Positions 11,585 through 53,786 of a stretch of DNA of 63,904 bases are shown here, one piece after another. The position numbers and the translations under genes were made by a program. This DNA comes from Chiloscyllium plagiosum (Eukaryota): positions 31,563,257-31,627,160 of the forward strand of contig NC_057740.1 in NCBI RefSeq assembly GCF_004010195.1. The letters are read 5' to 3'. A model generated the notes under the pieces. The model made no database searches. It was not told the origin of the DNA and saw only the letters and a program-made list of their open reading frames with translations. The stretch's first letter is position 1, and each line of letters starts with the position of its first letter.

Positions 11585-12150
11585 AAGAACTACAAATACT
11601 GGAAATCAGAAACAAAAACAGAAATTGCTGGAAAAGCTCAGCAGGTCCGGCAGCTTCTGTGGAGAGGAATCAGAGTTAATGTTTCGGTTCGAGTGACACT
11701 TCTTCAGAACTGATGGTAGCTGGGGAAAGGTTGGTTTACATGCAGATGATAGGGGGCAGGGAGGGAGTAAGTAGCAAACAATAGGTGGGGATAGAGCCCA
11801 AAGAGAGAGAACAACAGCTCGACAGACAAAGGAATGGATAACAATCAGCCTAGGAAAATGAACAGCTACAAATTAATGGCTAACAATCAATTGTGTGTGT
11901 CATAGCAGACCAAGGAGATAACAAGGAGAAAGTGAGGACTGCAGATGCTGGAGATCAGAGTCAAAAAATGTGGCACTGGAAAAGCACAGCAGGTCAGGCA
12001 GCATCTGAGGAGCAGGAGAGTTGACTCACTTTTTGAAGTGATAACAAGGCCTGGTGTGTGGGGGTTGGGGTCAGGACATGGGAGAAGAAGCTTCAAGCCC
12101 TAAAATCGTTGAAGTCAATATTGAGCCCAGACCACTGTAGAGTTCCCAAG
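11585..12150 (-). mobile_element. Penelope-like element 3' end, family B (GIY-YIG C-terminus plus pLTR with hammerhead)
   Basis: Minus strand ends ...LGTLQWSGLNIDFNDFRA*. Hammerhead at 11674-11711 reads (rc) AGTT-CTGAAGA-AGTGTCACTCGAACC-GAAACATT-AACT. Confidence 0.85.
11927..12039 (-). mobile_element. Family A PLE fragment nested in family B
   Basis: Family-A tail flanked by direct repeat GATAACAAGG (11917-11926 / 12040-12049). Confidence 0.85.
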
Positions 12151-13789
12151 CAGACTTTTATGTTCCCTTTAGACAGGTCTAACTTTAACATCTGATCTGA
12201 AAGACAGCACCTCTGGAAGTGCAGAGCTCTCTTTGTACTGAACTGTAAACCTCGGTTTTTTCTGAGATGCAAACCTGGCTTTTGGAGATGGGCTTGAAAA
12301 CCACAAACTGAGCCAGGACTCATGTAAAATTCAAGAGGGCAAGTGCTGTCCAATTTTGACAATACAGATTTTTTCACATATCGTTTCACTTCCTAGTCAT
12401 GTGTTGCGTTGTCAAAATGAGAATGGATTAGAGGATGTGATTGGAAGATAGTATAAACCACATGGATTACTAAGGGGATTCCAAGAACTACAAAATAAAA
12501 CAAGCATCGTCGAGCAACACTGAAAGTTAGATTCAAGCACTCGCAGGCATGCATATTTCCTCAATTAAGCTGGTAACCACTAAACACAGAGAAAGACATG
12601 CAATGAAACCACAGTTGCTTCAGTGATATCACTGGCCTATAGACTATTTGACAAGAAAATTCCAGCCTCTGGCAGTATGAGACTCAGGGTAGCAATAGTC
12701 GAAAACCACACATACCAAGCTGCTAGCAGAGCGGAGTACAAACTCTACACATGGTTGCAAATATAAATAAGACTGAAAATTTCTGGCTTGGCTCCTTTCA
12801 CAGGTTTACTTTTCACTGCAGGCACGCCACTGCTATTGCATGCAAAACACGAAAATGTGGAGGGGGGTACGGGGTTGAAAATCCCCCATTTTTTTCTGTC
12901 TGTCAAGCCTCATCTTGTGTGAGGACAAAAGCCCAGATGAGACTGCACAATCCAGCAATAAACAAGCATCTGAACTGAAAGAGAAACGCAGCCTGCATAC
13001 ACAAGGTCTTATTTTCCCTGGTCAGGCAAAAGCACAATTACCTCTCATCCTGGAAAGATTGCTGAACACAAAAGGTCTCTGATTCTGCTTCAGGGACGAA
13101 ACCAAAGCTTCATCGAAGTAGAATTAGTCAGATCCGTGAAGGCATTTGAAGACTTTGTGCAGGCTCCATTTCAGCAAAGCAGTGACTGTTCTGGCACAGC
13201 ATAGAAACTCTTCTGTCCAATACTACCTCCTTTCAAAACAAGCACACCCAAGCAAGCACTAACATTAGAAATGTGCCCGTGACAACTTAAGATGCAGCTT
13301 TTACAAGATATATGCCGAATGAACATAACTCTGTTATTTGGCTGGTCCCATAATTAGTAAAGCAAGTAATGTAATGAAGATGATGTGCCTATGTAAATAA
13401 AATGTTGGCCTTTTCCTCTATTTAATGGAGCCATTTAAGTCTCAATAAAGATATCAATGGAAATAATAAAGGTAAATGCCAAAAGTGAGGAATAACATTG
13501 TTAGGGGTGTCCAGCTCTTAATTTCACTCTCTTAAAGAGCTATTACTGACTGTTAATGCAACCTGTTTAGAATGTGGAGCCGCATTGGTTTGGGATGAAG
13601 GTTTGGCACTACCATGGGTCGGAAGGGGAGTTGGCACTCTGATATTGGTGGCTGAAACTTGCAGTCCAGGAAGGAAGTGCCCTCTGCTCTTCCTTGCTCG
13701 CAAGGAATGCTCCTCATTGTATAAAGTCCCATCTGATTCCCCGTGTTAAAATTACCTCCTTCTGTGCTGCATGATCTCAGTGGATCATC

Positions 13790-14480
13790 ACTGGCTGTCC
13801 CTTGATTCGGGGACTATGTTTACTCAGGGTCATGGGTTTTTGTCATGGCTCTGCAGGTGACTGAACAGGCTAGATTTTGATCTGTAGATTTATGGGGCAG
13901 GGCATCTCAGAAGGTATGGTATCCAAAGAGTAGGGTTTGTTTTCTTTTCTTCTCTGCCTCATCATTAATATGTTGTGACTCAAAGTGCAAGGCAGCTTCC
14001 TCAACAAGCTATTGCCATTGTGAACAAATGATCACAAGCCCCTCACAGTCATTATGCCACTGGCTTCAAGGAAAGACTCAGGTGTCTTTAAAGCATTTTT
14101 TAAAAATCTCCTGCTGAAATGCTGGCTGTCTAAAAATTGAGAAGAGAAGAGGTGGAGGAGAAGATGCTTTTTGGCCACCCCGACACAACCCATCAAAACT
14201 GACTCTGCAGGAGTTTTGCCTGAACACTTGTGGAACTGGCTTCCAAGGAAGACACTAGTCTTTGTTGGGTGGACCTCCCATTGAATCCTAAGGAGGTAGA
14301 GGAGGTGATGCTGTTGGAATTTCTTGCGCACTCATATGTATAACTCTTGTGATACACAGCCTCGGTCTAATGACAGTACAGGAATGTGGTGATAACAACT
14401 GCTCTGTACTCTGAGAGTTTTGTTCATGTGCAGAGATCCTGATAGTTCAACACTGGCTGTCAGAGTGACTCATGACTCCA
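13790..14480 (-). mobile_element. RTE-clade LINE 3' fragment
   Basis: Minus strand gives LLRIQWE.., RRFLKNALK.., VEEAALHFE and SLFSHLQSH, typical of RTE ORF C-termini. Confidence 0.75.
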
Positions 14481-16289
14481 GTAGATACTATTCCACTAGT
14501 ACTAGCCACTGGTGCATAGCCAATATTAATTGTTTTCTTGGCAATGTTTAAGAATGTGTATTTTCCAATGATAGACAGTGGGCAGCAATCATGAGCAGAA
14601 TGCTTATTCTAGCTGAGGCACAGAAAACCATTTGTATCTCTCAATTTGATTCCTTGTCTGAGGTCAGCCAACTGAACAAAGACTGGGAACCTGGGGCTTC
14701 TATTATTGCTCTACAACTCACTGGCATTATTAACTGAACCACCAGTTAGAACAGAATCCTTTTCAGGCAACAACAATCAAACCTGTGTGGTGTTTTACCC
14801 GTCCTGCAAATCAACAGATTCCCAGGTACAGTAAGCCTTTAAATGCAGTGTCTAATTCAAACTGTTCACATTTATTCATTCATCTTTAAAGACAATCAAC
14901 TGTGAAAATGTTAAAACTGGAGTTTTTGGCAGACACACAAGACCAAGCTGCAGCTAGAATTAGTCAACTGACTCACCTATGTTCATTCATGGCTGCTGTT
15001 ATAACAGGTCACGCTAACCCAACCACAGGGTCATGCACACATCAACTCATAATCATAAATTCCTTGTTAGTATAAACACACAATAATAATTTGTGTTACT
15101 GGCTTGTAAGATGTTAAAGTGTGCAAGATTTACAGCATTTATAGTTTCTCACAGGGATGGGCTGACCTTATTTCCCCACAATTGGCAATCTATGCCTAAA
15201 CAACAAGCAAGCACAGCCAATACGATAAGGGCAAGCTGCAGACAACCAGACAATTTTGGCTCCTGTTGAAATTGTTGTTGGCTGCAGGAGTTAAAGCAGA
15301 GAATTGTTGGGATTCAACCAAGTAACATGTGATTCCCCACAGCCAAGGTCTTCTTCAGCTAAGTGTGAAGGCCACCCAGCAGGATAAGGGATTGTGATGT
15401 CAATCTCCTCAACACCTTTCCTCTTCTGTTACTAGCCAAAACAACTGACAATATGACAAGGGTATTGTAACTGAAACTGGGCACACCCCTTCCAATCAAA
15501 ATACGAAGATAGCTATCTCTTTCATAGCTCCAGTTATCAAGGCACAACGAGTGAGCTGCCCATTGGAAAACACTTTGAAGCTAAACACTGGAATGTTTCC
15601 AAAGTAGCCATTATGTTAATTCCCTTCCAGCCAAAGAAAGCTGGTATCTCTATTGTTAATTCTGTTCGGTCAACACAGACAGTATTTGTGTAAGCGCTAC
15701 AGACCTAATCCCATTTATGGCTTTTATATTTTAGGCATTTTTCAGCCTTTAACAACCTCCCAACTATTAAATGTGCTATCTTCAAACGTTTGTTGCACAA
15801 TACTCCAGATCAGAGCGTTGATGTGGTTGGCTGCTCCTGTACATTTTCAGGTTTCTACTCACTTTGATTTCAATAATGCGAAGGTCAAGCATATTCTGAA
15901 TCCAGTGATTCACATTCCACCAGAAAACCCATTTATTTTTCCCAAGGGGACCAGAAATATGATGGAAGCCCTCATACTGTGGAACGTAGATAATAAGGAC
16001 ACTCTGTATTCAGTGCAAACCACTTCCCTGACCTTGCACAAATAAGCCATAAAACCATAGAAAATAGGAACAGTGCCTCAAGCTTGCTCCACCACTCAAT
16101 AGGATCATGGCTGATCCAATGTACTCCTCATGTCCACTCTCCTGCCTTTTCCCTATACATAGGACCATAAGATGGTGGGAATATTTTGGTCACTAGAAGT
16201 ATTTGGATAAAGACTTCCCATTCGGCTGCAGCCTCCAAAGATTTCCAAGTGAGAGACCAATGCTTTTTGATAATAGACTTCTAAGATTG

Positions 16290-16493
16290 GAATCTAGAGT
16301 GTGGTGTTGGAAAAGCATAGCCAATCAGGCAGAATCTGAGGAGCAGGAGAATCCACATTTTGGGCATAAGCCCTTCATCGTATACCCGAAACATCAATTC
16401 TCCTGCTCCTCAGATGCTGCTTGACCGGCTATGTTTTTCCAGCACCACAACTCTCCACTCTGATCTCCAGCATCTGTAATCCTCACTTTCTTT
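16290..16493. mobile_element. Family A head-to-head fold-back pair
   Basis: Minus copy ends at 16379, GTATA filler, plus copy starts at 16385. TSD TTCTAAGATTG at 16279-16289 / 16494-16504. Confidence 0.9.
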
Positions 16494-16869
16494 TTCTAAG
16501 ATTGAAATGTCTATCTGAAGCACAATCAGTTATTGCCCTGGATTGATGAATTTGAAACAAGCTGCCAGATGAAGTGGTTTTGCGTTCTCCTTAACTCCCC
16601 TAAGAACCTGCTGCCTTCATTTCAATGCCAGATGCATATTGACTGTGAGTAGTGACCGGGCTTTCCTGGGCCTACAGGAAAAAGGAATGCATTATTCAAG
16701 ACCATATATCACTGAATCGGTGGAGTTCAGATTGTTGAAGAAGATTGTTTCATATTTGCTCTTGGGAAGGAGTAACTAGGCAACACTCAATGCCAAGGGA
16801 TTTCACAATCCCATTAGACCTTAGGGAAAACATAAAAACACTGGCATTAGCATGGGAACAGTAAGATAG

Positions 16870-17330: not shown

Positions 17331-18016
17331 AAAAAGAAACAAATTTTGCTACTGGTTAACATCAGAATGCCCCTAAAGATCACCATACAGTACTGCACTA
17401 TACTGATAAAGATCAGGTGAGTGTCTGTTATTATCAGGGAAAAAAAAACAAATATACACTGTGGAGTTGGGCCATTGGGTTTAGATACCTCAGAGAAAGC
17501 AACAAATGAGAACACTGAACCACGAGGGATTTTTCTTCCCTCTTGCTCTCTTCTAAAATGAACATAAAACATTACAGATCATGCACTCACATATACATCA
17601 GAACTAGAACCTAACGATTCAAAATTCAGTTCACTGACATTTTCTTTTCTTATCTAATTTGGTCATCCTTCAAGTAACAGGGAGTATAAACTTGTTAAAG
17701 TCAGCCTTGTACTTACAGAAGCAACTTGCCTTGGCTTTATCCTTGAAATATATCCCGCAGGTGCAAATTTGGAGATGAATAGTTCAAAAATGGCCCTCTT
17801 TAAAAGAAAAGAAGAAACTCAGCGACAAAATGTCTGGCCAAATGGCTGGGTCAATTGCCTTTGGGCACCACGTCAACTCGTGGCCAAGGCCAAGTCATGT
17901 CATGTTGCAACGTTCAATTGGGGAGAGATTATAGTTGGCCACCCTCATCAGAAGGTCAGCCATGCCTTTTAAAAAAGAACTAAGAACTCATACACACATG
18001 CTTACTGAAAATTCCA

Positions 18017-18189
18017 ATAACACCAGGTTATAGGCCGACAGGTTTATTTGAAATTGCAAGGTTTCAGAGCGCTGCTCCATCCTCATACCTGAAAGCTTAC
18101 AATTTCAATTAAACCTGCTGGAATATAATCTGGCATCACTTGATTTTTGACCTTATCCACCCCAGTCCAACTCCGGCACCTCTACATCT
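18017..18189. mobile_element. Family D PLE head-to-head fold-back pair
   Basis: Inverted arms (caccaggttataggccgacaggttt / aaacctgctggaatataatctgg) joined in the hammerhead at about 18085. TSD TGAAAATTCCA at 18006-18016 / 18190-18200. Confidence 0.85.
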
Positions 18190-18957: not shown

Positions 18958-18979
18958 CAGTTGAGCACCATCAGGTATC

Positions 18980-19070: not shown

Positions 19071-19902
19071 TATGCACCATCTTGGCATTTACTCAATATT
19101 TGAAATGCTGGCTCTTTAATGGCCAGCAGATTGTGCATTCTAGCTGGGAGATGTTTTTAAAAGTGTTTTCATAGGAAGCTTGGAAGACTACTTTGCACTG
19201 AATGTATTTCACCCATTGGCAATGTTTGTCTTTGATTCAAAATCTATGCCAAGTTTACATTTGGCTTCACATTGATGCATGTTGTTTACATTTCATTAGT
19301 AGTGAGAGCAAGGAATCAAGTTAGCCAGTTCCAAATCCAGGCTCACAGATGAAAATGCCTCATAAAATATCCCAGACATGTAAAACACAAAAGCTAGCTG
19401 GATCCAAAGAACATGCAAGAGAAGTGATGTCAGACCCCTGCAGAGCACCGGACCATGTGTCACAACATCACTGAAGGACTTCCTCAGTGAAATCCTTGGT
19501 CTAAACATCTTCCTTAATGACTTTTTGTACAATCAAAGACATGGAAAGGGCTTTTCCCAGACCATTCCACAATGTTTAACTCATTCAGAACACTAATGAC
19601 CACTGCAGTACCACCCATGAATGGAACTGGACAGAACTCCATACGAAAAAAGCCACATAGAAAATAGGAATGGTATAGGCTATTCGGCCCCTCAAGCCTG
19701 CTCCACCATTCAACAGGAACAAGGCTGACCTGCCCCAGTTTTCAACGACAACTCTTCATTCATGCGACATAGCCCTCAACTTCCTGATATTTCAAAAATC
19801 TATGTACCTCAACTTCAAAGGAGGCCAAAATTGTACACAGTACTCTTGGTGCGACCTCACCAACACCCTGTCGGGTTGTAATAAGGCTTCCCCATTTTCA
19901 AA

Positions 19903-20161
19903 GTTGAGACATGTGGTACTGAAGAAGCACAGCAGGTCAGGCAGCATCCGAAGAGGAGGAGAGGCGATGTTTCGAGCATAAGCCCTTCATCAGGAATGTG
20001 GGGGAGGGTGGAGGGAAGGAGATGGGGGTTGAGAGATAAGTAGGTGGGGTTGGGGGAATGGTAGCTGGGAAGGCGATCGGTAAATACAAGTGGGAGGTGA
20101 TGGTGATAGGTCAGAGCTGAGGGTGGAGTGGATAGGTGGGAAGGAAGATGGACAGGTGGGA
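19903..20161 (-). mobile_element. Family A-related PLE pLTR
   Basis: Reverse complement reads ATTC-CTGATGA-AGGGCTTATGCTC-GAAACATC. TSD CATTTTCAAA at 19893-19902 / 20162-20171. Confidence 0.9.
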
Positions 20162-20379
20162 CATTTTCAAACTCCAACCCTCATGCAAATACGCCAAAAT
20201 TCTCTTTGTTTTCTTAAATACCTGCTGCCAACTACAATGTTTCATCCACAAGAACACCCAATTCCCTTTGTACTGCACTTTGTAGACTCTTGCTCCATTT
20301 CAATAATAGTCTGCTTTTCGACTGTGCTCCTACTAAAGTGCATGATCGCACACTTTCCTAAATTAAACTACATCTCCAT

Positions 20380-21076: not shown

Positions 21077-21167
21077 GGGAATGTGTTGCTGGAAAAGCGC
21101 AGCAGGTCAGGCAGCATCCAGGGAACAGGAGAATCGACGTTTCGGGCATAAGCCCTTCTTCAGGAAG
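21077..21167 (-). mobile_element. Family A mini-insertion (91 bp)
   Basis: TSD ATCCTCAAAGAT at 21065-21076 / 21168-21179. Confidence 0.92.
21132..21166 (-). ncRNA. Minimal hammerhead ribozyme motif, intact core
   Basis: Reverse complement reads TTC-CTGAAGA-A-GGGC TTAT GCCC-GAAA-C-GTC-GATT. Stem I is weak. Confidence 0.7.
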
Positions 21168-21741
21168 ATCCTCAAAGATCCCTAGCAAACTTGTAAAACA
21201 TGCCTCACCTTTCACAAAACCATATTGATCCTGATTGTGATACATTATTCTAAATTCCCAGCTATTGCTTTTTTAATAATAGATCCTTTGTTAATCATAG
21301 GTAGTTCATCCATTTCACAGAGTTGTCTTTTTTGACCAGAATAAGTTTTTGCTGCACTTTATGAAATATCTGGTTGTTTGCCATTGATTTTCCCCTTAGT
21401 TTATTTTCCCATCCCACTTTAGCAACTTTTTCTTCATATTTCTGTCATTGTCCTTATCTAAGTTGAGAGCATTGATTTGAGACCTGAGTTGCTCTTTAAC
21501 AAATTGAATTTGAAACTCTACTATGTTGAGATGGCTACTTCCTAGCGGGTCCTTCACTGAGATCTCTTATTAATTCTACCATAATCCAGTCGGTTAATGT
21601 TACAATGTTATACTCTGCAGATCACGACTGTAACCTAAGCCGCTCTACAACACTTAAAGTCTGCTTAAATATGGAAGGATGAGATGACAAAGTAACACCA
21701 GAGTGGATGTACATTTGCTTGCTGGGCTGGAAGGTTTGTTT

Positions 21742-21781
21742 TCAGAGGTTTCGTCACCATACTAGGTAACATCATCAGTGA
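21742..21781 (-). ncRNA. Family E hammerhead motif (one stem III substitution)
   Basis: Reverse complement reads TCA-CTGATGA-T-GTTACC TAGTAT GGTGAC-GAAA-C-CTC-TGA. A more decayed twin lies at 24086-24125 (+). Confidence 0.7.
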
Positions 21782-22254
21782 GCCTCTGGTGAAGCTCTGG
21801 TGGTATGGCCTACTTTTTATTTATGTGCTTACGATTCCTTGAGTTGGCGATGTCATTTCCTGTGATGATGTCATTTCCTGTTATTTTTCTCAGGGGTTGG
21901 CAAATGGGATCCAAGTTAATGCTTCTAGGAATTCTCATGCATGTCTCTGTTTGGCTTGACCTAGGATGGATGTGTTGTCCCAGTCAAAATGGTGTCCTTC
22001 CTCATCTGTATGTAAAGATACTTGTGAGAGTGAGTTATGTCTTTTTGTGGTTAGTTGATGTTCATGTATCCTGGTGGTTAGTTTTCTGCCTGTTTGTCCA
22101 ATGGGGTGTTTGTTATAGTTCTTGCAAGGTATTTTGTAAATGACATTAGCTTTGCTTGTTGTCTGTGTAGGGTCTTTCAAGTTCATGAGCTGCTATTTTA
22201 GTGTATTAGTGGGTTTGTGGGCTACCATGCCAAGAGGTCTGAGTGGTCTGGCAG

Positions 22255-23990
22255 GTAGCAACACTTACCAACAAGTGGCGATAGATCTGACCCCACAACT
22301 AGAGAAACGAAACACAGCCCTTCTCAAAAAACTTCAGAGATCTGGAGAAATAAATAAGACTGACTTCCAAACAATGAAACCAGACAGATCCGACTCACCA
22401 CGTTTCTATGGATTAACCAAAATTCACAAACCAGGAGCCCCCCTCAGACCCATAGTCTCACTACCTGGAACACCAACTTACAGATCGGCCAAGGAGCGAC
22501 ACCAAAGACTAAAACATTTAGTAGAAGACTCACACCACTCCATCCACTCCACCCAAGAATTCCTGAAGACCATCAAAGACTCCAAGATAGAAGAGGATGA
22601 AATAATGGTCTCCTTTGATGTAACAGCCCTGTGCACATCCATCAACATCAACCTGGCCAAGGAAACACTGATTACCCTATTAGAAGAACCAAAGACACAT
22701 ACACCAAACACCACCAACTTCATCAGCAAGGACAGTATTGTCAAGCTAGTGGACCTATGCCCCACTACCCACTCCACCTTCAACAACAAAACCTACAGAC
22801 AAACCAACAGAACACCCATGGGATCACCGATATCAGGGTTCTTAGCAGAGGCAGTAATGCAGAGACTCAAACAAACAGCTCTACCAACCATCTAACCTAA
22901 ATCTTGGGTCAGCTACGTGGATAACACCTTAGTCATCACTAAACGAGACAAATCAGAGGAAACCTTCAAGACCATCAACAATATGGTTATTGGCATAAAA
23001 TTCACTAAAGAGGAAGAAAACAACAACAAACTGCCATTCCTAGATGTCACAGTACAGCGAACAGCCAATGGGGAATTTCAAACCAGCGTCTACAGGAAAA
23101 CAACACATAAGGACCAAATATTGAACTACAGAAGCAATCATCCCAATGCCCACAAACGAAGTTGCATTAGAACATTATTTCAATGAGCCACCACACATTG
23201 CAGCACACAGGAACTACAAAGAGCAGAGGAAAATCACTTTTACAGTGTATTCAAAAAGAACGGGTACCCAATGAACACAGTCCACCGATTTCTCAACAAC
23301 AAACCCAAACAAGCAGACAAAACATGTCCAGAAACCCTAGCCACTCTCCCCTACATCAAAGACATCTCAGAAATGACTGCCAGGCTACTCAGACCTCTTG
23401 GCATCATGGTAGCCCACAACCCAACCAACACACTAAAACAGCAGCTAATGAACTTGAAAGACCCTATACAGAAAAACAAGCAAAACTAATGTCATTTACA
23501 AAATAACTTGCAAGAACTGTAACAAACACTACGTTGGACAAACAGGCAGAAAACTAGCCACCAGGATACATGAACATCAACTAGCCACAAAAAGACATGA
23601 ACCACTCTCACTAGTATCTTTACATACAGATGAGGAAGGTATGGAATGAGCTGCCAGAGGATGTGGTGGAGGCTGGTACAATTGCAACATTTAAGAGGCA
23701 TTTGGATGGGTATATGAATACGAAGGGTTTGGAGGGATATGGGCTGGGTGCTGGCAGGTGGGACTATATTGGGTTGGGATATCTGGTCGGCATGGACGGG
23801 TTGGACCGATGGGTCTGTTTCCATGCTGTACATCTCTATGACTCGATGACTGGGACAACACATCCATCCTTGGACAAGTCAAACAGAGACACACATGAGA
23901 ATTCCCAGAAGCATGGCATTTCAACCGGAACTCTATCAACAAACACATTGACTTGGATCTCATTTACCACCCCCTGAGAAAAAGAACCAG
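22255..23990 (+). pseudogene. PLE reverse transcriptase / GIY-YIG endonuclease, disrupted
   Basis: PRFYGLTKIHKPGAPLRPIVS, SFDVTAL, PMGSPIS, YVDN, LPFLDV, YRKTTH, NHPNAHK and VIYKI..C..YVGQTGRKL..RIHEH, with stops and frameshifts. Confidence 0.95.
23639..23851 (+). mobile_element. CR1 3' end inserted in the PLE GIY-YIG domain
   Basis: VWNELPEDVVEAGTIATFKRHLD and ctatgactcgatgact tail. Absent from the inverted arm. Confidence 0.95.
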
Positions 23991-24219
23991 AAATGACATC
24001 ATCACAGTAAATGATGTCAACAACCCAAGGAAACCTAAGCACAAAAATAAAAAGTGGGCCATACCACCAGTGCTTCACTGGAGGCTCTCTAATGATGTTA
24101 CGTACTACGGTGACAAAACATCTGAAAACAAACCTTCCAGCTCAGTGAGCAAACTTACATCCAGAACCCCAACCAGAGCTATAAATCATCTCAAAATTTG
24201 CTAACACCAGAGTGCTAGC

Positions 24220-25022: not shown

Positions 25023-25054
25023 CTGAAGAAGGGCATGTGCCCGAAACGTCGAAT
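25023..25054 (+). ncRNA. Minimal hammerhead motif, intact core
   Basis: CTGAAGA-A-GGGC ATGT GCCC-GAAA-C-GTC-GAAT. Confidence 0.7.
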
Positions 25055-25110
25055 CTTCTGTTCCCTAGATGCTGCCTGACCTGCTGTGCTGTTCCAGCAA
25101 TAAAGTTTCA
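25025..25110 (+). mobile_element. Family A mini-insertion (86 bp), young subtype with AATAAA
   Basis: Perfect 14-bp TSD CCTCTGCAAGTTCT at 25011-25024 / 25111-25124. Confidence 0.95.
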
Positions 25111-25654
25111 CCTCTGCAAGTTCTACCAACTTGAATAAATAAAGCACAAACTATGAGAACACAATTAGCTTCTTTAAGGCATGCAATGATTGCTAAGCCA
25201 TTGATATCATTGGCTCAAGAGCCTGCAAGTCCAGAGCCACAGCATTATAGGAGCACCAGTTGCAGATGCACTGTAGAAGTTCAAGGATAAAGTTCACCAT
25301 CAATCCACTCAGAGAAGCTAAGACAATCAAAGGCAACATTGGCAAATGGACCCCTCCTGAAAACAAAATTTTAAAGGCTGCTTATCAACTCTAGTTTTTC
25401 TTTTCCTCTTATTTTACATAGGACATTCCTCAAGATATTTGAAGAATCCTTTTCATTGCTACCACAGTGAAGGAGCAGAAAGTATTTGGGGCTAGGTGGT
25501 GCCATATACTATTCAAAAGAATAACAAATATCAGGCAGCAAGCTGCAAGCTCTAATTCAAGCTCATGGCTCTGTTAGTCTTCATCAACTGCTCAAGATTC
25601 TTCCTCGTGTTTCATTATGCTATTTGAATCGTTCAATTGAATTACAGCCTCACA

Positions 25655-30812: not shown

Positions 30813-31044
30813 CCATCTATTCATTCCTTGATAATTTCAAAATTGTTGTTTTCCAGAATTCAGCTTATGCCTCGGCAGTAATTGGTGAATGGGAAGAACA
30901 GAACAGGGAGTGGGAAACCAGAGACCTGGTCATTCTAGGCTCTTATGCCAGTCAAGAGTGATATTACAGGAACACTCACAGTGATCATTGTTTCCTGATG
31001 TAACATTTAAACTGACAGTAAACACAAGAAATTCAGCCAACTCG

Positions 31045-31322
31045 CATCATGGCTCAGTGGTTAGCACTGCTGCCTCACAGTTTCAGGGTCCTGGGTTTGA
31101 TTTAGCCTCAGGGGGAGTTTGCATGTTCTCCCAATGTCTGTGCTGGTTTACTCTGGACGCTCCGAATACTCCCACAGTCCAAAGATGGGTAGCTTTGCCA
31201 TGGAAAATGCAAGGTTACAGGTATAGAGTAAGGGGTTTGGTGTGGATGGAATGCTCTTTCGAGGGTTAGTGTGGACTTGATGGGCTGAATGGTCTGCTTC
31301 CACACTGTAGGGATTCTATGAT
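31045..31322 (+). mobile_element. HE1-type V-SINE
   Basis: tggctcagtggttagcactgctgcctcacag head, ggagtttgcatgttctcccc V-domain and gggattctatgat tail. Confidence 0.9.
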
Positions 31323-32144
31323 ATCAATATCTAATCAATAAAATTGCAGTGAGCAAAGCTTTGCATTTGAATGCATGTTCTTGAGAATGAAAGTCAAGTT
31401 CCCTTTGAATTGTAATTGGTCATCGCTCCTTATTTCCATCCTGTCTCCTTATAGGTGTTTTCCGTTTCCCCTTGTTAGTGCTCACAAGATGTTTATCCCC
31501 TTGAGGGACACTGTAAGTATGCAACTGGTTGTTATGCATTTCATCGGATGAAAACATTGATCTGTGGTCCACAGCTACAGGAGAAAAATAAAAGTCATGG
31601 AAACAGTGTTTACTTTTGGAAGAGAAAAACCTCCAAAAGAGGAAAGTAGAAAGACCCCAGGAGATCTACCATTTATGGTTTCAGAATCGTCAGTCAGTTT
31701 TGTTCTGCTTTTAGCTTTCTTTATTGTTAATGGTAATGAGAGCTTTATGGTCAAAGACTCAGACTCAACTTTCCTTCAAGGAATCAGACAAGCTTTACAT
31801 CTCGTTAACGGCAATGAAGTCAATGCTCAATGACTTTTCTGTGAGTTTATGTAGTGGTCAATTGTTCCATAAAAATGCACAGACACTACAGAAGCTACTG
31901 AAAGTTGACCCATAAGCATCAGTGCAGATATTTTGTGATGGGTGCAATATTTTATAAGTACACCTGTTGCACGCTTAGAAGCTAGTGGTAATTCTAAAAT
32001 ACAATAGTTACATTTTTATAGATCTTTAAAGCAGTTAAACATCCCAACAATTTATGAGAGACTTATCAAACAAAATCTGGCACCTGCCTTATTATACAGA
32101 CAATGATAGCCTTTTTTGACTGCAAGCAGACTTACTCCACAACT

Positions 32145-32268
32145 AGGGGAAAGTGAGGACTGCAGATGCTGGAGAGTAGTCGAGAATGTGGTGCTGGAAA
32201 AGCGCAGCAGGTCAGGCAGCATCCGAGGAGCAGGAAAATTGATGTTTTGGGCAAAAGCCCTTCATCAG
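32145..32268 (-). mobile_element. Family A fragment
   Basis: Homology stops exactly at TCATCAG (rc CTGATGA, 32262-32268). GAAA is decayed to AAAA. Confidence 0.9.
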
Positions 32269-34950: not shown

Positions 34951-34964
34951 GAAATATTGATCTC

Positions 34965-35201: not shown

Positions 35202-35325
35202 CCTGAAGAAGGGCTTATGCCCGAAACGTCGATTCTCCTGCTCCTTGGATGCTGCCTGACCTGCTGCGCTTTTCCAGCAACACATTTTTCAGCTCTGATC
35301 TCCAGCATCTACAGTCCTCAGTTTA
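35202..35325 (+). mobile_element. Family A fragment with intact hammerhead core
   Basis: CTGAAGA(35203-35209)-A-GGGC TTAT GCCC-GAAA-C-GTC(35228-35230), then the family tail. Confidence 0.92.
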
Positions 35326-35484
35326 TCACATAAGTGGATATTAGGCAAATGACCAAAAGGAAAACACAAGTTGTTAGGAATGTTGTAAGAGAATATGAAG
35401 TTAGAGAAACAGAGAGTTTGGGGAGAGAATTCTAGACATTAATACTTGGCAGGTAAAGGTTTGACTGCCAATAGTAGCATAACA

Positions 35485-37179: not shown

Positions 37180-37278
37180 GAAACAAAAGCAGAAATTGCA
37201 GAAGAAACTCAGCAGCTCTGGCAGTATCTGAGGAGGGAAAACAAAGTCAATGTTTCAGGTCCAGTGACCCCTCTTCAT
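37180..37278 (-). mobile_element. Family B pLTR fragment, decayed hammerhead
   Basis: Homologous to 11605-11710. Reverse complement reads TGAAGAGGGGTCACTGGACCTGAAACATTGACT. Confidence 0.75.
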
Positions 37279-37895
37279 TGAATTTCAAAACTGGCATGAA
37301 AAATGGTCTACTTCTGCTCCTACTTCATATATATTTATGTCTGAATAGCCTGTTGTATTTGTTCCTGCTGAGAACAACTAGGCTTGAACATAAAGCCAGT
37401 GTTGTAGGCTGGAATGACCTTGAAAATTGTCTCACATTAACACATTACCCTCTTTTTGAAGTAATGACCAACAAAGTAAGCAAGTGCCCAACACTTTGTG
37501 TCCCGGTCCATTGTCAGCCTGAGGGCTGAGCTAGCTTTGGCTTCCAAGACCTTTGTTGAAGTCATTGTCCTTGCCTAGTCCCACTTGATCCTCCATAGCC
37601 CTGCGAGTTTACTTCCTTCAAGTGACTGTCCAATATCCTTTTAAAATCATTGATTGTTTCAATATCCATCCTCGTCAGCACAGAGATCCAATTTATTATC
37701 ACACGCAACAATGGAAGTTTCTTCCTCATTTTCCTCCCTCCAATTTTTACCCCAAATTTAAAATCTGTCCTTCTTTCATCAATTAATGGGAAAAGTTTTT
37801 CCCTGCCTACCTTACCTAATTGTATAATAATTTTGTAGTTGAAACTTTATTGCTGGAACAGCACAGCAGGTCAGGCAGCATCCAGGGAACAGGAG

Positions 37896-37931
37896 ATTCG
37901 ACGTTTCGGGCACAGGCCCTTCTTCAGGAAT
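37896..37931 (-). ncRNA. Minimal type-I hammerhead ribozyme, mirror copy
   Basis: Exact reverse complement of 38114-38149. Confidence 0.8.
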
Positions 37932-38113
37932 GAGCAGAGAGTGTTCAGCAGGAGAAGATAAAAGGTAGGGAGGAGGGACTTGGAGGAGGGGCGTTGGAAA
38001 TGTGATAGGTGCAAAGAGGTCTTGACCTCTTTCCACCTATCACATTTCCAACGCCCCTCCTCCAAGTCCCTCCTCCCTACCTTTTATCTTCTCCTGCTGA
38101 ACACTCTCTGCTC

Positions 38114-38149
38114 ATTCCTGAAGAAGGGCCTGTGCCCGAAACGTCGAAT
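38114..38149 (+). ncRNA. Minimal type-I hammerhead ribozyme, fully intact
   Basis: ATTC-CTGAAGA-A-GGGC CTGT GCCC-GAAA-C-GTC|GAAT. Stem I is ATTC/GAAT, stem III is palindromic ACGT, predicted cleavage after 38145. Confidence 0.8.
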
Positions 38150-38659
38150 CTCCTGTTCCCTGGATGCTGCCTGACCTGCTGTGCTGTTCCAGCAATAAAG
38201 TTTCAACTTTGATATCCAAATGAATCCAACAAGAACTGGACCAAGCATATGTGGTACTCATAATCTTCTTCATCCTAAGTATACGCATGATTTTACTACA
38301 ACTGCTAAGTATTTCATCAGTAATATTTTCAGCAACATAACACAAAACATCGCAGATAAGAAAAACTGCAGCATATTAACATGCCAAATTTCCCCTAAAG
38401 TAAATGCATTAAAATTCCATCAAATTTGACAATATTGTTATGTATTTGGCTTTAAGGGGTTAACACGTAGGGGGTTCCATACAACAGCCAAGCAGGGTGA
38501 GATCAATAGTTGTGATGTTGAGAAGATATGCTCTTCTTCATTAGGGTAAATAAAACCACAGAAAGTAGACAAAATCAAACACAAAATATTGCTGAGGAAA
38601 GGAGTGAACAAAGACAGAAATGGGAACTATTTAAATGTAAATCTATGATTTGTTGTACG

Positions 38660-43922: not shown

Positions 43923-44081
43923 TAGGGAGAAAGTGAGGACTGCAGATGTTGGAGATCAGAGTCGAGAGTGGGGTGCTGGCCTTTCATCAGGAGTAATGCA
44001 GGGCTTATGCCTGAAACATAAATTCTCCTGCTCCTCGGATGCTGCCTGACCTGCTGTGCTTTTCCATCACCACACTCTCCA
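43923..44081. mobile_element. Family A head-to-head fold-back pair
   Basis: Minus arm (internally deleted) ends TCATCAGGA at about 43992 and the plus arm starts at about 43994. TSD CTGGATTACAA at 43912-43922 / 44082-44092. Confidence 0.9.
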
Positions 44082-44589
44082 CTGGATTACAACAGCTGGT
44101 TAGCAATCAGTTTACATTTTGTTTGCATGGGATTTGGTTTTGTGAGGATTGGGTGGGAAGTAAGAAGAAGGATTTGTTTTTCACTGCTTCTATAACAGGA
44201 TCCGTTCCCCCAACCCTTTCATTGCTGTCTAAGACAGGCAGCCTGGGTAACCCTTAACATAAAGAATGGACACTTTGTCAGGAAAAAAGGATGGACACAC
44301 ATATAATGCTGGCACTCCATTCACTCCTTTTAGAAAATTGCTTATAATACTTCGATCCAAAATCACAGAACTGTACAACCGAAACAAGATACAAGTCTGA
44401 TGAGAGCGAAAACCCACATTCCCATTTTCACCTTGTACTTTACATTTAGAATAGGGAGAGTCGGAGTGTTGTCAATCACTTAATTTAACAGTGACTCATT
44501 TCAAATAATGTACAACACTTACAAGCTTACATGCCTATATACAGTATACACATACACTAATAACCCAATACATCCACAGGCATACCTGC

Positions 44590-45352: not shown

Positions 45353-45882
45353 TCTTTGAGGAGAAAGTGAGGACTGCAGATGCTGGAGATCAGAGCTGAA
45401 AATGTGTTGCNNNCTGAGACAAGGTGGGGGAGGGGAAATGAGGAAACTGGAGAAATCTGAGTTCATCCCTTGTGGTTGGAGGGTTCCTAGGCGGAAGATG
45501 AGGCGCTCTTCCTCCAGCCGTCGTGTTGCTATGGTCTGGCGATGGAGGAGTCCAAGGACCTGCATGTCCTTGGTGGAGTGGGAGGGGGAGTTGAAGTGTT
45601 GAGCCAAGGGTTGGTTGGGTTGGTTGGTCCGAGTGTCCCAGAGGTGTTCTTCCTGACCTCTCCGTCCCCACCCCCACTCCGGCCTATCACCCTCACCTTG
45701 ACCTCCTTCCACCTATCGCATTTCCAATGCCCCTCCCCCAAGTCCCTCCTCCCTACCTTTTATCTTAGCCTGCTGGACACACTTTCTTCATTCCTGAAGA
45801 AGGGCTCATGCCTGAAACGTCGATTCTCCTGCTCCCTGGATGCTGCCTGACCTGCTGCGCTTTTCCAGCAACACATTTTCAG
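45353..45882. mobile_element. Family A PLE: minus arm with GIY-YIG C-terminus (contains NNN gap) plus plus-strand pLTR
   Basis: Minus strand reads LAQHFNSPSHSTKDMQVLGLLH...LEEERLIFRLGTLQPQGMNSDF. Plus-arm hammerhead at 45790-45825. TSD CTCTCTTC(A/G)TTAAAA at 45338-45352 / 45883-45897. Confidence 0.92.
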
Positions 45883-46042
45883 CTCTCTTCGTTAAAACTC
45901 AATAGTCATTTTCCTAGCACTGTTAATTGGATATCCCTTAGACTCATTGCAGGTGGATTACGGATTTTGTGCCAGGAGCTCTGCGTTCAATTTGTATTTG
46001 CTCAGATATATAACAATATCTCTGAACAGTTGGTTATAAAAT

Positions 46043-47355: not shown

Positions 47356-47500
47356 GGACAGACAGACAGACACACACACACACACAGAGATACACACATA
47401 CACACACAGCACAAAAATACAGACACATATACAGCTAAATATACAATTCATATTCGCATAGAAACACACCTACACTCAAAAACACACATATATGCACAAA
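47356..47500. repeat. Compound (CAGA)n/(CA)n microsatellite, decaying
   Basis: gacagacagacagacacacacacacacacagaga... Confidence 0.9.
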
Positions 47501-48140: not shown

Positions 48141-48334
48141 GTTTAGATCAGAGTGGTGCTGGAAAAGCTCAGCAGGTCAGAGAGCATCCGAGGAGCATGA
48201 AAATCGACAGGAACAGCTTTTGCCTGAAATGTCGATTTTCCTGCTCCACGGATGCTGCCTGACCTGCTGTGTTTTTCCAGCACCACTCTGATCTAAACTC
48301 TAGTTTCCAGCATCTGCAGTCCTCACTTTTACCC
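48141..48334. mobile_element. Family A head-to-head fold-back pair
   Basis: Minus arm ends at GAC (rc GTC) 48208 and the plus arm starts in stem II at about 48216. Perfect 15-bp TSD ATAAAAGAGATTATG at 48126-48140 / 48335-48349. Confidence 0.93.
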
Positions 48335-48619
48335 ATAAAAGAGATTATGACAGCTCACAACTGGAAAAGCCCATTGCAGTCCAACTAACAGGTAGGTCCA
48401 TATGACCCGCAGCCATTATATCCAACATTAGCTCTTCCAAAGAGTCAGAGACATCTCCAGCACAAAAATGGCCCTTTGGCATATCGAGTCTGTGCCAACC
48501 AAAAGCAACCACCTGGATATTCTTCCACAAGTGCAGATCTAAATACTGCCTAGCAGTTAAGGGGTTCTGCCTCGACCACCCTTACAGGCAGTGAGTTCCA
48601 GATTCCCACTTAAGAGGAA

Positions 48620-48946
48620 ACTGGTGGTATAGTGGCAATGTCCCTGGACTAATAATGCAGATTGCCAGGGTAATACCGTAGGGATATGGGTTTGATCTCC
48701 CCATGACTGATTGTTAAATTCTAAGAAAAACAAATCTGGACTAATAGTGACTGTGTTACTACTGCTGATAGTTGTAAAAGCAGTCTGGTACACTGGTGTC
48801 CTTCAGGAAATAAAATCTGTCATCACTACCTGATCTGACATACAATGTAACTGCTGATCTACAGCAATGTTGTGGACCTTAACTACTAATTGGAGATGGA
48901 CAATCAAAAGCCTAGCAGCAATGCCCACATCTCATGAATGAATAAA
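48620..48946 (+). mobile_element. tRNA-headed SINE with L2-type tail
   Basis: tggtatagtggcaatgtccctggactaataatgcag head and gcccacatctcatgaatgaataaa tail. Confidence 0.8.
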
Positions 48947-50174
48947 ACTTTCATATGAAGTTTTTCTCCAATGTTTACTAATTAACTCATTCCTTATTGC
49001 CTCTCTTCACTAAATGAAAAATATCCTTTGTGTTAATTGTCTCCACTTTATTATCCATTTTTCCGCCCCTACTTACTTTGAGATGACATCTCTTATATTT
49101 TGATGTTTTGCCCTGCTATCAATGACTGGTGGACTGTGGTTGGGTAGAGTGCTGCTACTAATTCTCCTTTTCATATATTTTCTAATCAACCTGTTCAATG
49201 ATGTTATTACACATCACTGAAGCAGATGGGACTTGAACCGGGGCGTCTTGGTTCAAAGCGAGGGATACTACCACCATATCACACAAGCCCAGTTCTCCTT
49301 CCTATGCCGGTCTAAAGGGCTAAAGGGCTATTCAGTAGTCATTGGTGGAGGATGGACTAGATGCAAGTCTCGGCGTAAGAAGCACGTTAAATAAAAAGCT
49401 GTAGTGTATTAGCTTACAATAATTATACACTGGCGATATCAGCTCTTAGACATATTCATTATTATTAGCAAAGAGGACAGTCTGTGAATCCCCACCAGGG
49501 GTTTTTGCCATAACGCAACTGATTCACTACCACATGTGAGTACAGCTCACACATTAACCCATTCGGAAGCATTACCTTATAGAACAACTTGCACTCTGTT
49601 GAATGACACAAAGAAATGGAAAACTTAATAAATAGATTGGCATGACGGTAATCCAAAGGTAAGTGGGTGATGACAATGACCCGCATGGTTCTGTGATGTG
49701 GAATGGAACAAATGGGAGATAGATTACCTGGCTAACCTTTCTGCTTTTACATTCTACTCTTGATGAACAATATTTAAATATTGTTTACATAAGAAGAATA
49801 AATCACATAATAATGGTCCCATTGTGTATTCTTGCAGATAGGTTTTATTCATTTAGCTTAAATTAATTCAAATTTATTAGGTACATAACAGTGTTCTTTC
49901 TTTCATTGTCAAATTTTATACATTCTCTTTAGGACCTGCTCATACATCATGCACATAGACAATAATGAATGCACATTACACATTATACTTATTGCTCATT
50001 TTTATAATATATCGGTTATGCTGCCGTCTTGCAAAATCTCATCTCTTTTCTTCAGGAAAGGACAGTTCTGGTTCTCCTGATTTCCCACCATAAAATCATT
50101 AGAAAAGCTGTATGAACTACTTGAACTCTTCTCACTGTGTTCTTTAGGATTTTCGCTGATCTTTAATTGAAGTT

Positions 50175-51730
50175 ATAAGGACATAGAACAGTACACTCAG
50201 GAAAGGACCTTTCAGCCCATTATGTCTGTGCTGACCACAATGCCTTTCTAAGCTCATCCCATCTGCCTGCACATGGCCCATATCCTTGTATTCTCTGCCT
50301 GTTCATGTGTCTGTCTAAATGTGGATTAACTGTTGCTATTGTGTCTGCTTCGACTACCTTTCTTGGCAGCGCATTAGCCACCTATCGTCCTCTGTGTAAA
50401 AAACGTATCTCCTACACCTTCTTTAAACTTTCCACCTCTCACCTTAAACCTATGACCTCTGATATTTGACATTTCCAACCTAGGAAATAGACTTCAACTA
50501 TCCGCCCTATCCATGCCACCTATAATTTGATATACTTCTATCAGGTCACCCTTCAGCCTTCGACACTCTAGTGAAAACAATCCAAGTTTATCTAACCTCT
50601 TCTTAGAGCGAATACACTCCAATCCAGGCAACATTCTGGTAAACCTCTCTTGCAACCTCTGCATAGCCTCCACAACCTTCCAATAGTTTGGTGACCAGAA
50701 CTCCAAGTGTGGACAAAGTAAAGTTTTATACAGCTGCAACAGGACTTGCCAACTTTTATACTCAGTGCTTGAATCGATGAAGGTACACATACCACATGCT
50801 TTCTTTACCACTGATCCACTTGTGTTGCTCCTTTCATGGAGCTATGGACATGCACCCCAAAGTTCCTTTGTACATCAATGCTCCTCTGGGTCCTGTCATT
50901 TACTGCTTTCCTCATGCGTTTGACCTCCCAAAATGAGTCACCTCATACTTGTCCAGATGAAACTTCATCTGTCATTTCTCTGCTCAGCTTTCGAACTGAT
51001 CTATATCCTGCTGCATCCTTTGATAACCCTCCTCACTGTCCATAACTCCACCAACTTTCATGCAGCCTGTAAACTCACTAATCCGACAATCTATGTGTTC
51101 TTCTAAATCATTTATATATTACAATCAACAGAGGTGCCAGCACTGATCCTTGTGAAACACCATTTGTCACAGACTTCAGTCAGAAAAGCATCCCTCCACA
51201 ATTACCTTCTGCCTTCTTTGACCAAGCCAATTTTATATCCAACTTACAAACTCATACTCCTTGCATTAAAGTAGATACACTTCAGGCTGCCAGTCCTGCC
51301 TGTTCTTCCTACTGGACTTACCTGATTTAGTCCTCTCTTCGCTTCAAGCACTCCACATGCTGAGCCTACTTTTCAGGTCCTGCTTTTCAATTTTCCACCT
51401 AACTCCCTAAATTCCCTTTTCAGGCCTCATCTCTCCTTCTGTCTATGATATTAGTTCCAGTATGGACCATGGCCTCCGGCTGCTCAGGCTCCCCTATTGG
51501 AATATCTGTACCCACTCGGAGACATCCTTGATCCTGGTACCAGGGAGGCAACACATCATCCTGCAATCTTACTCACAGACACAGAAATGTCTATCTGTGC
51601 ACCTGACTATTTCATTACTGCACACCTACACTTGATGCTCTCGCCTCTACAACAGAACCAATTGTGGTACCACTGATCTGGCTACTGCTGTTGCTTTCCC
51701 TGAAAGGCCATCCCTAACAGTATTCAAATA
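50175..51730 (-). mobile_element. CR1 LINE: tail, ORF2 C-terminal half, then an internal deletion joining an ORF1 (SGNH/esterase-like) fragment
   Basis: ORF 50494-50811 LQLYKTLLCPHLE..RFTRMLPGL. About 51520-51560 (rc) reads RMMCCLPGTRIKDV. Confidence 0.85.
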
Positions 51731-52964
51731 AAGTGAAAATTGAGAAATTTGCTCCCAACGTCCTGAATACTATCTCAGTGTAAGGTGCAGTCACTGCAAA
51801 ACCAATTGATTGTTTTTGAAATGACTATTTTCATTCACATATCCCTCACTGGGTCCGATCCTTCCTTTACAGCCTCCAATGGCCCAGCTTGCAACTTCTG
51901 TGTATATTCAATTGCACATCTTCCCATTCCCTTTATTTTATTATCAGTCACAAAACCTTTAGCCATTATAGCCTTGCACTCTAGCAAAGCACTTGTTACC
52001 TTGTTTTTTCTACCTTCAAATTGCTCCTGAAGAACCTACTCCTCAACTGTGTTTGGTTGGCCCACTACAGACTCCAAACTCATGCTCAGCAGTCAATCCA
52101 TCTTCTTGTGAACTGTACTGCCATGTATTGCTATGGTTAAAGGAGTATGAGTACCCTTTGTAGTTGCACAATGTAAACTGGGCCTACAGTGAGTGTGGTT
52201 ACACATAATGTGAGAATGCAGGAAAAGGTACGTCATAACGTAGCTCCAGTTCACAATGGGCAGCATGGCTGGAATGGACCAGAAACAAGTACCCAATGTA
52301 AAACTTTGGTTTCCAAACATTTATGAGATGAACGAAAGGAGCCGAGGACCATTAGGTACAGAAGGAAGCCATTTAGCTTCGCAACCTCGATCCTTCATTC
52401 AATTAAATTATCCACATCTTAACTCTATTTCTCAGTCTTGACTCCATATTGTTGACACTTGTGCAGAAAAGGGTTGACTCTTGAATATGTTCATAGGAAG
52501 CTATCTCAATGATGAAGCCATGATCATACAATGGAGAGACCCTGAAGCAACAACTTAAACTTCATGCTTAATTCAAATCTACGGAGTTAGTTTAATATAA
52601 ATAAAATTTTAAAAGTACTAAGACTCTAGCCAGATCTCTAGCATAGAGCAGTGGACTCTAAAATCTTTGAAGACATCACACCACATCATCAGAAGTCTAT
52701 TAATGTCATTTTTGATGGTTCTAATTGTCCCATCATCCATATCCTTTTGGAACAGAGAATTCAACATTTCTCCTATGCTTTTTGATCTTGTACGGTAAGT
52801 CCCTTCATGTTTGAGTCTCCCGACCAGATTAAATAGTTTATCGATCTACTTGAAATCATTAAACGTATCCAACACCTCAATCAGGTCTCCATTAAATCTT
52901 TTAGATTGAAAGGAATACTAAGTTTGTGTAACCTGCCTTTGTCATATCATTGGTTAGAGACAAA

Positions 52965-53013
52965 GAGTGTGTATTTTACTGTTGTCATTGTAACAACAGT
53001 AAAATACACACTC
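52965..53013. repeat. Perfect 21-bp inverted repeat with 7-nt loop
   Basis: GAGTGTGTATTTTACTGTTGT-cattgta-ACAACAGTAAAATACACACTC. Confidence 0.9.
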
Positions 53014-53434
53014 AAGTTTGTCATTCAGTATTTTCTGTTCCTTGTCAGTTCCTGCAATGGTTTTAGAAGGGAAATGCCACCCGGTGTAAAGAGAAAGCCC
53101 CGAAATTTGATAATAATCCAAGCTAACCAACTTTACTACAACCATAGTGACAAAATTGGGCGGCTGTAATTGGTCTTAGGTGAGGGTAGAGGGTGAGCAG
53201 AGGATATTGGCTTTGGTCAAAGGTGGAGAATCCCAGTGTTGTGACTGCTATCTAGCAAAACTGGCTGCAAAGGTTAACAACTGCAGACATGACAGACTTA
53301 GTTGTGAGGGCCCCTGTAATGGAACAGACTGCTGAGAGCGATGACCAAAGTTCTTGGGTAAGGATAGAAGACTTGGCGTGGTGCCAAAAAGCAATTGGCA
53401 TTGGTTTAACTGTATTACATGAAATTATCAATGC

Positions 53435-53786
53435 AATGTCTTGCCCGGTGAAGTAGTTGATGCTACTTCATTAAACATTTTTAAAGCTAAGATAGATATT
53501 TTTTGAACAATAAAGGGATTAAGAGATGGTTTGGAGATGCCAGTGTTGGACTGGGGTGTACAAAGTTAAAAATCACACAACACCAGGTTATAGTCCAACA
53601 GGTTTAATTGGAAGCACTAGCTTTTGGAGCGCCGCTCCTTCATCAGGTGGTTGTGGAGGAATTAAGGGATACAGTGAGAGCGTGGGTAAGTGGAGCTGAG
53701 TCCACAAAAAGATCAGCCATGATCTTATTGAGAGGCGGAGTAGGCTCGAGGGGCCAGATGGCATACTCCTGCTCCTAGATCTTATG
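53435..53786 (+). mobile_element. CR1 3' end interrupted by a family D element
   Basis: LPGEVVDATSLNIFKAKID, with the 3' UTR resuming at about 53660. Confidence 0.85.
53524..53656 (-). mobile_element. PLE family D pLTR with hammerhead
   Basis: Reverse complement reads CAC-CTGATGA-A-GGAGC GGC GCTCC-AAAA-G-CTA-GTG (53615-53649). TSD AGG(G/A)ATTAAG at 53514-53523 / 53657-53666. Confidence 0.88.

Follow-up and report, generated by a model that had tools for sequence, protein, structure and literature searches.

A 63,904-nt stretch of the Chiloscyllium plagiosum genome (NC_057740.1, 31,563,257-31,627,160, in a genome totalling 3.56 Gb; hereafter the window) is studded with the 3' ends of Penelope-like elements (PLEs). 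The repeats comprise the end of an endonuclease (EN), a pyrimidine-rich 3' untranslated region (UTR), a minimal hammerhead ribozyme and a tail. We call each hammerhead-bearing copy an arm, whether it stands alone or in a head-to-head pair. On the features testable here the elements are EN+ PLEs: body copies carry the DKG, RT4 and RT5 motifs, and a GIY-YIG end lies directly upstream of the 3' UTR, its Pfam GIY-YIG match (E=0.043) falling below the cut-off. Pfam reverse transcriptase (RT) models gave no match on three family A/B pieces. No intact open reading frame (ORF) was recovered, the loci, nine fetched ones included, holding gaps and stops. Long open frames near the endonuclease (L041-L049) proved to be gaps in the assembly, 2-6 kb long and in many cases lying between inverted arms; long inverted elements have probably been assembled incompletely. 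The pseudo-long terminal repeat (pLTR) of PLEs appears as a partial tandem, in which the 3' end of an upstream copy precedes 4 of 30 body copies and the tail continues into the 5' end of the body. The ribozyme has the parts of a minimal type-I hammerhead, namely CUGANGA, stem II, GAAAC-GUC without helix III and a short stem I; a Rfam scan returned no hammerhead match at the gathering score.

The elements fall into families that we label A1, A2, B/B2 and D, which have related tails, together with C, E and F. Motifs suggest that A, B and D are Neptune-like, B and D being assumed so from tail similarity, and that E and F are Poseidon-like. The Neptune label is a putative, motif-based one. Three family A loci have a zinc-finger-like C-x4-C-x2-C in the RT-EN linker, a motif that the available text of PMC8557442 describes as common to Neptune and Nematis. 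Copy number is very high: one 29-nt A2 tail motif has 48,145 exact copies genome-wide, and A/B/D arms occur at about 188 per Mb (242 arms in a 1.31-Mb sample), which extrapolates to about 670,000. The elements, their ribozyme, tail and inversions are already known. EN+ PLEs with minimal hammerheads share RT plus a C-terminal GIY-YIG, partial tandems, inverted 5' copies, a 30-40 bp end tail, and solo or opposite-strand hammerheads from truncated copies, as far as the accessible parts of PMC4209133 and PMC8557442 go. Those parts also describe frequent 5' truncation, for which they propose self-cleavage and circles. The base-precise edge, extra G and TATA+30 spacing reported below do not appear in them.

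Arms lose homology at a sharp edge on the 5' border of the hammerhead. We number positions from the C of CTGANGA (C3) as 0, so that a cleavage product would begin at +28. The sample, 1.31 Mb in total, was drawn from arbitrary places on over 30 large contigs; its 242 arms were found by the tail only, so detection was independent of the 5' end. Tail-selected young copies were added (A2 from the first places on one contig, C1, plus B). We took 5' ends from local alignment to 71 natural long copies, leaving out 4 of the 242 random arms that lacked an alignment or lay too near an edge, and used protein- and upstream-selected loci as references only. Ends fall at -4/-3 in 37 of the 238 random arms, in -10 to +12 in 122 and at +26 to +30 in 9. 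In young family A (156 arms) the end hazard is 0.20 per nt at -5 to -3 versus 0.0096 upstream, and 45 of 96 at-risk arms end at -5 to -3 against 2.7 expected (p=4e-43). Exact pattern counts extend this genome-wide: among 50,382 arms in which -3 to +19 is intact, 53% lose homology within -6 to -4. A(-4) is missing from 10,891 (21.6%), C(-5) is lost in 11,050 more (28.0% of the remainder) and T(-6) in 4,785 more (16.8% of the remainder), with all three kept in 23,656 (47%). Arms differ from the references by a few percent per site, so mutation cannot explain the lost bases. The clustering is thus confirmed as real and non-random. The initial annotation had proposed, from the window's sequence, that ends concentrate inside the ribozyme beyond what random truncation would give. 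The concentration holds, but the ends are not spread evenly within the fold: they form an edge at -4/-3 that decays downstream.

Insertion boundaries bear the aligned ends out. Among solo arms, 47 of 256 have a target-site duplication (TSD) abutting the aligned 5' end, in a test restricted to ends at -200 or closer; a swapped-flank control gave a mean of 0.65 and a maximum of 2. These 47 verified ends fall at -4/-3 in 16 cases and in -8 to +2 in 32. The annotation had also allowed that the ends might be an alignment artefact of variable pyrimidine-rich upstream sequence, a possibility to which we give next to no credence. Old B and C subfamilies do differ just upstream of -4, as an artefact would need, but the peak is strongest in young family A, where the upstream sequence is uniform. 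Moreover, pyrimidines make up at least 70% of the 60 nt upstream in none of 101 short arms (hereafter stubs) but in 63 of 66 long arms; the DNA upstream of stubs is ordinary genome. The largest listed pile of 5' loose ends in RNA reads stands at exactly -4 (60 reads, before 45790; one run). It is most likely read-through of genomic stubs, and so confirms, without recourse to the alignments, where the edge lies though not what causes it. We also considered a 3' splice site and rejected it: AG occurs at -17 to -27 in several subfamilies but not in A1, stubs have no shared leader, and no such joint is listed in the reads.

The ribozyme's cut site very probably does not define the inserted unit. 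Self-cleavage, or a circular or dimeric template, was among the explanations first offered, and a few observations speak for it: two window arms begin at the GTC triplet, 8 of 83 close pairs have an arm at +26 to +31, and a second RNA loose-end pile stands at +24 (53 reads). None of the 47 TSD-verified ends is at +28, however, with two at +29/+30, and only 2 of 150 young arms end at +27 to +30 against 5.7 expected, so there is no excess at the cut. Most stubs retain the whole core upstream of the cut, and with a circular template a stop at -4 is not expected. In PAc, a Poseidon element of Anolis, RNA-seq gave no reads ending at the cut and catalytic mutants inserted normally, according to the sections of PMC11167929 available. 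We regard cleavage or circles as the maker of the unit as highly improbable, in line with the annotation's view that simple cleavage fits badly and against its suggestion that self-cleavage defines the unit.

Many ends at the boundary carry an extra G. The element's own base before A(-4) is C; in the first 100 listed copies on contig C1, counted by eye, the base found there is G in 57, A in 28 and T in 15. The expectation for G was 26.5 per 100 on an assumed composition (p=1e-10; measured, 25.4%), and neighbouring control positions gave 29/100 and 15/100. In our own sample G precedes 19 of 36 ends at A(-4) versus 81 of 294 other ends (p=0.003). A clean single G stands between TSD and A(-4) at locus L307 and in one family B copy. 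Capped full-length L1 insertions are likewise marked by an extra G, which the available portion of PMC11702581 attributes to the mRNA cap.

The boundary also lies at a promoter-like distance from an AT-rich, TATA-like box. The box is near-fixed in every family examined and sits about 30 nt upstream of the edge in family A: at -35 in 23 of 28 long A2 copies, -35 to -43 in 26 of 36 B, -36 to -40 in 11 of 14 C, -53 in 8 of 9 E and -45 to -50 in 8 of 8 F, with family D offering only two true long copies, both with a box at about -35. The hexamer at -6 to -1 is TCATTC in 27 of 28 long A2 copies and TCAGTT in long D copies, and both fit the initiator consensus with A at -4. The edge seems to move where the box moves, in small sets: family C has 4 of 39 ends at exactly -8 (TATA at -38), and family F has 5 of 18 ends at -18 to +7 and none from -19 to -151. 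Among ORF-containing copies, 7 of 30 span the upstream hammerhead region; 3 of these 7 also stop there, at 0, +3 and -8, and 4 run on into the upstream copy. Together, the extra G and the TATA/initiator spacing favour a transcript 5' end, a possibility absent from the initial annotation. A(-4) is probably the capped transcription start, where the RT would run off its RNA after 95-130 nt.

A stall at the ribozyme fold is one of the alternatives that the initial annotation had favoured. Here the enzyme, on RNA that continues upstream, would halt at the 5' strand of stem I, add a non-templated C and switch template; in variants the ribozyme is held by protein or the new cDNA folds back. In A and B the edge (-4) does fall on the border of stem I, as does the commonest end in C (-3). 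In 14 of 83 close pairs both arms are at -5 to -1, and in two arms (L021-L022, L054-L055) the hammerhead core is copied a second time in tandem, right ahead of a start at -4, a pattern resembling a backward slip of the polymerase. Yet the enzyme comes upon the fold at its 3' side (+32), whereas the edge is at the 5' border, where the fold has already been copied. The region is no more stable than shuffles (z -0.07 to 0.75), the G excess is specific to -4, and family C has its separate cluster at -8. Families E and F have hammerheads without a comparable peak (0 of 15 and 3 of 18 ends in -10 to +12), so the fold is not sufficient for the edge. We consider stalling unlikely. Template switching, proposed alongside it, is supported by hammerhead-copied linkers at the joints, but as a consequence of reaching the template end.

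A processed end is quite unlikely as well. Either the RNA would be trimmed 5'-to-3' as far as a protein-bound ribozyme, or the element endonuclease would cut cDNA at ATT (-4 to -2). PAc favours 5'-ATT-3' in the available text of PMC11167929, and the edge coincides with the fold border. Against this, family D peaks at -2/-3 without ATT, neither trimming nor cutting yields an extra G, and the TATA+30 spacing goes unexplained.

Several observations weigh against a capped start at A(-4). No RNA start was seen: the RNA data, single-cell polyA reads and contigs of a kind that cannot show starts, listed no site at which many molecules begin, and reads aligned to family F show no step at the predicted start. 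Microhomology with a templated partner would also explain many of the G's, although that reading too needs a C where the cDNA ends. In 2 of 30 inspected loci the TSD itself ends in the G, and the 100 listed copies are no random draw: one locus or more is duplicated among them, and some palindromes are counted with both arms. Across the boundary 47% of arms continue seamlessly, and ends at -3 are about as common as at -4. The family A box is weak (5/7). In family D, 0 of 44 ends lie at -4, the peak being at -2/-3 with no G signal; family C ends are commoner at -3 (7) than at -8 (4), the exact C ends coming from one analysis only, since another was partly contaminated by inverted-junction alignments (ends -55 to -64); and only 1 of 15 family E ends is near TATA+30. 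In Drosophila virilis the layout differs, 46 nt plus a 75-nt intron separating the start from helix I downstream, in the parts of PMC2377424 and PMC4209133 available.

Insertion anatomy points to cDNAs begun at two sites and joined at their far ends. The 3' ends cluster near +61 and +97 after the cut site, about 36 nt apart; this bimodality comes from a separate 3'-end analysis, the windows in the TSD analysis having been preset to two clusters. TSDs measure 14-16 bp in 126 of 204. Both arms of the 83 close head-to-head pairs are copies of one hammerhead-tail stretch, 78 pairs combine one long-tail with one short-tail arm, and 50 have an arm at -5 to -1. Insertions thus present the PLE form of an inverted 5'-truncated copy with a 30-40 bp tail at one end and a TSD; arms are solo or head-to-head, not head-to-tail monomers bounded by the cleavage site. 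Joints have overlaps of 1-7 nt or short linkers copied from the hammerhead, as expected of a polymerase out of template and re-annealing. Microhomology alone, with TTC/GAA, stem II and ACGT palindromes as favoured joints for randomly truncated cDNAs, would account for these joints, which dominate the pairs, and for minor end peaks at +2, +8/9 and +24 that fit palindromes. Partnerless, TSD-flanked solo insertions show the same edge, however (the 16 of 47 at -4/-3), which makes this explanation of the edge very unlikely; microhomology likely shapes the downstream scatter, not the edge. Separately, the TSDs of 174 arms start with CT in 44 and end with AG in 36, a bias that is partly microhomology with the tail and possibly a cutting preference.

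A mechanism built on a capped start at A(-4) can be outlined. The 3' UTR belonging to the upstream partial copy would drive transcription from A(-4), making the hammerhead the first 32 nt of the mRNA. By analogy with PAc, the protein would begin cDNA synthesis at internal positions, within the 5' repeat's tail, using both nicked strands of the target. In PAc, the accessible sections of PMC11167929 report cDNA from two internal sites, extension of both strands, dispensable hammerhead cleavage and a need for ORF RNA downstream of the start sites; in a pLTR-ORF-pLTR transcript, the 5' repeat is the one place where such RNA is assured. The enzyme would meet the cap some 95 or 130 nt further on and add a C. 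Joining of the cDNA end to the target would leave a solo stub, and joining to the sister cDNA by microhomology a head-to-head pair, a few bases often being trimmed; alternatively, the end may switch template. Long copies could come from a template switch to the RNA's 3' repeat or from priming on the 3' repeat itself. As a separate observation on the ribozyme, the first conserved ATG of family A, a putative start codon, lies about 45 nt after C3 and past the cut site (window 45839-45841; L285, L293), so cleavage would part the cap from the ORF.

These steps would resemble a strong-stop reaction. Retroviruses and LTR elements make strong-stop DNA by priming near the RNA 5' end, run off at the cap and use terminal redundancy for a jump. 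More tentatively, we propose a strong-stop cycle in which target-primed synthesis on a terminally redundant RNA, begun some 100-130 nt from the cap, gives a short cDNA that runs off at that end, jumps to the 3' repeat and rebuilds a promoter-bearing pLTR; stubs would be failed jumps, and the ribozyme an off-switch that removes the cap, not a cutter of unit lengths. Seamless long copies and a regenerated promoter would follow from a switch to the homologous 3' repeat, and hundreds of thousands of hammerhead-headed stubs would fossilise the start site at base resolution. In favour of the jump, 5 of 8 visible 3' arms of body copies are fused at -4 to -15 to the ORF interior, at least two of these fusions lying within one TSD-flanked insertion. 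One chimera among 87 long arms crosses at -4 (L309:1445-1610, where a B2 3' UTR is followed by the hammerhead and tail of A2 and these by the end of a B2 tail). Against it, the fusion set is biased toward deleted copies, the fusion at L295 is common to both arms and so may predate the insertion, the chimera could be gene conversion, and priming on the 3' repeat gives long copies without a jump. A recurring spot in the family A ORF takes fusions or an insertion and has CTCAT-like microhomology to -7 to -3 (L272, L275, L293).

The proposed cycle differs from each known system in some respect. Strong-stop synthesis is primed by tRNA, whereas here nicked target DNA would be the primer, products are integrated in place and the jump is hypothetical. 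PAc shares two start sites that define the tail and a hammerhead at the pLTR-ORF junction, but belongs to a different clade by motifs, and PMC11167929, in the parts available, treats 3' ends and proposes a multi-copy mRNA, with nothing on 5' ends or where the transcript starts. By eye, a TATA-like run can be made out in the template printed there, about 45 nt ahead of C3. L1 shares the extra G at a fixed 5' end, inversions primed from both strands and joint microhomology (PMC11702581, available portion). L1 twin priming, as described there, yields adjacent, nearly non-overlapping segments, whereas here one hammerhead-tail stretch is copied in both arms, and only about 100-130 nt would separate the priming site from the capped end. 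The insertions studied are therefore not of the L1 twin-priming type, although some with an inverted tail-only arm come closer. Non-LTR retrozymes are also hammerhead-bearing derivatives of PLE pseudo-LTRs, but the accessible part of bioRxiv 10.64898/2026.07.22.740005 describes head-to-tail monomer arrays; here we see solo or head-to-head stubs with TSDs and only two short core re-copies. No base-precise edge, cap G, hammerhead start site or strong-stop step for PLEs was found in the literature searched, which included few subscription papers.

If the edge marks the capped start, start sites of any high-copy family could be read from genome assemblies alone, and self-cleavage would be excluded as the maker of the inserted unit. 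The roughly 188 arms per Mb would be by-products, not an independent family of short interspersed elements (SINEs), and a testable cycle would tie target-primed retrotransposons to the strong-stop logic of LTR elements. The work thereby bears on pLTR regeneration and on the role of the hammerhead in PLEs, subjects of the available text of PMC2377424 and PMC11167929.

The window holds examples of each arrangement (Table 1). Every site named in the initial annotation is present. The ends it assigned to CTGANGA lie between -3 and +2, and its second arms begin at stem II or the core as described. The two arms it placed at the cleavage triplet do begin with GTC (+25), whereas the start of a cleavage product would be 3 nt further downstream. 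The copies it singled out, under its family A, as extending upstream do so (19903, 37837/38208 and 45353), but they are not alone, the family D arm with its core at 11707, which it did not list, extending too.

Table 1. Penelope-like copies and component features in the window (offsets relative to C3)
Feature	Coordinates	Strand	Remarks
TATA-like AT island at -35, A2 pLTR	45759..45765	+	weak, 5/7 consensus letters; putative promoter
Initiator-like TCATTC (-6 to -1)	45788..45793	+	A at 45790 (-4) is the boundary and the putative capped start
Minimal type-I hammerhead core: CTGAAGA, stem II, GAAACGTC	45794..45821	+	motif as in PMC4209133 (available text)
Predicted hammerhead cut	between 45821 and 45822	+	predicted from sequence
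Tail up to proximal reverse-transcription start site	45822..45886	+	about +61 after cut site
Whole A2 insertion	45353..45886	.	inverted part on the minus strand (tail, endonuclease end) fused to a direct part (3' UTR, hammerhead, tail); 15-bp TSD, one mismatch
Family B arm, core at 4	1..128	+	cut by window edge
Family D long arm, core at 11707	11586..11854	-	TATA-like box at -35, TCAGTT at -6 to -1; upstream limit approximate
Family B solo arm starting at GTC (12025, +25)	11927..12025	-	short linker; 10-bp TSD 11917-11926 / 12040-12049
Family B head-to-head pair	16290..16491	.	5' ends +2 (16379) and about +19 (16385-16388, +17 to +20); short-tail and long-tail arm; TSD
Family C head-to-head pair	18008..18182	.	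minus arm starts at +1 (18085); second arm at about 18088
Family B long arm to about -173	19898..20166	-	10-bp TSD
Family A2 solo insertion	21080..21167	-	5' end -3 (21167), with one additional C; TSD of 12 bp
Family F (Poseidon-like) long head-to-head insertion	21704..24163	.	RT fragment 22140-22895; control family
Family A1 solo insertion from C3 (0)	25023..25111	+	TSD 12-14 bp
Family B solo arm from 0 (32268)	32139..32268	-	
Family A2 arm from -1 (35202), long tail	35202..35333	+	
Family D-type arm from +1 (37277)	37180..37277	-	
Family A1 near-perfect head-to-head palindrome	37837..38208	.	both arms cross the boundary, to -94/-97
Family B head-to-head pair	43925..44083	.	minus arm from -2 (43992), internal deletion; second arm +1 to +8 (about 43994); 11-bp TSD
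Family B2 head-to-head pair	48141..48338	.	5' ends +25 (48208) and +10 (48216); 15-bp TSD
Family C solo arm to -14	53534..53660	-	

Other repeats share the window with these copies. The family F insertion (21704-24163) has its own hammerhead and a clear AT box and is interrupted by a piece of a long interspersed element (LINE). Decayed LINE RT fragments, which we take to be CR1-like, lie at 6965-8337, 10340-11016, 50248-51242 and 58931-59546 (Pfam RVT_1 E=4e-25 at 6965-7831). A dispersed SINE-like repeat of about 300 bp, unrelated to the hammerhead arms, occurs at 6443-6765, 31044-31330, 53880-54098, 57688-58003 and 63491-63803.

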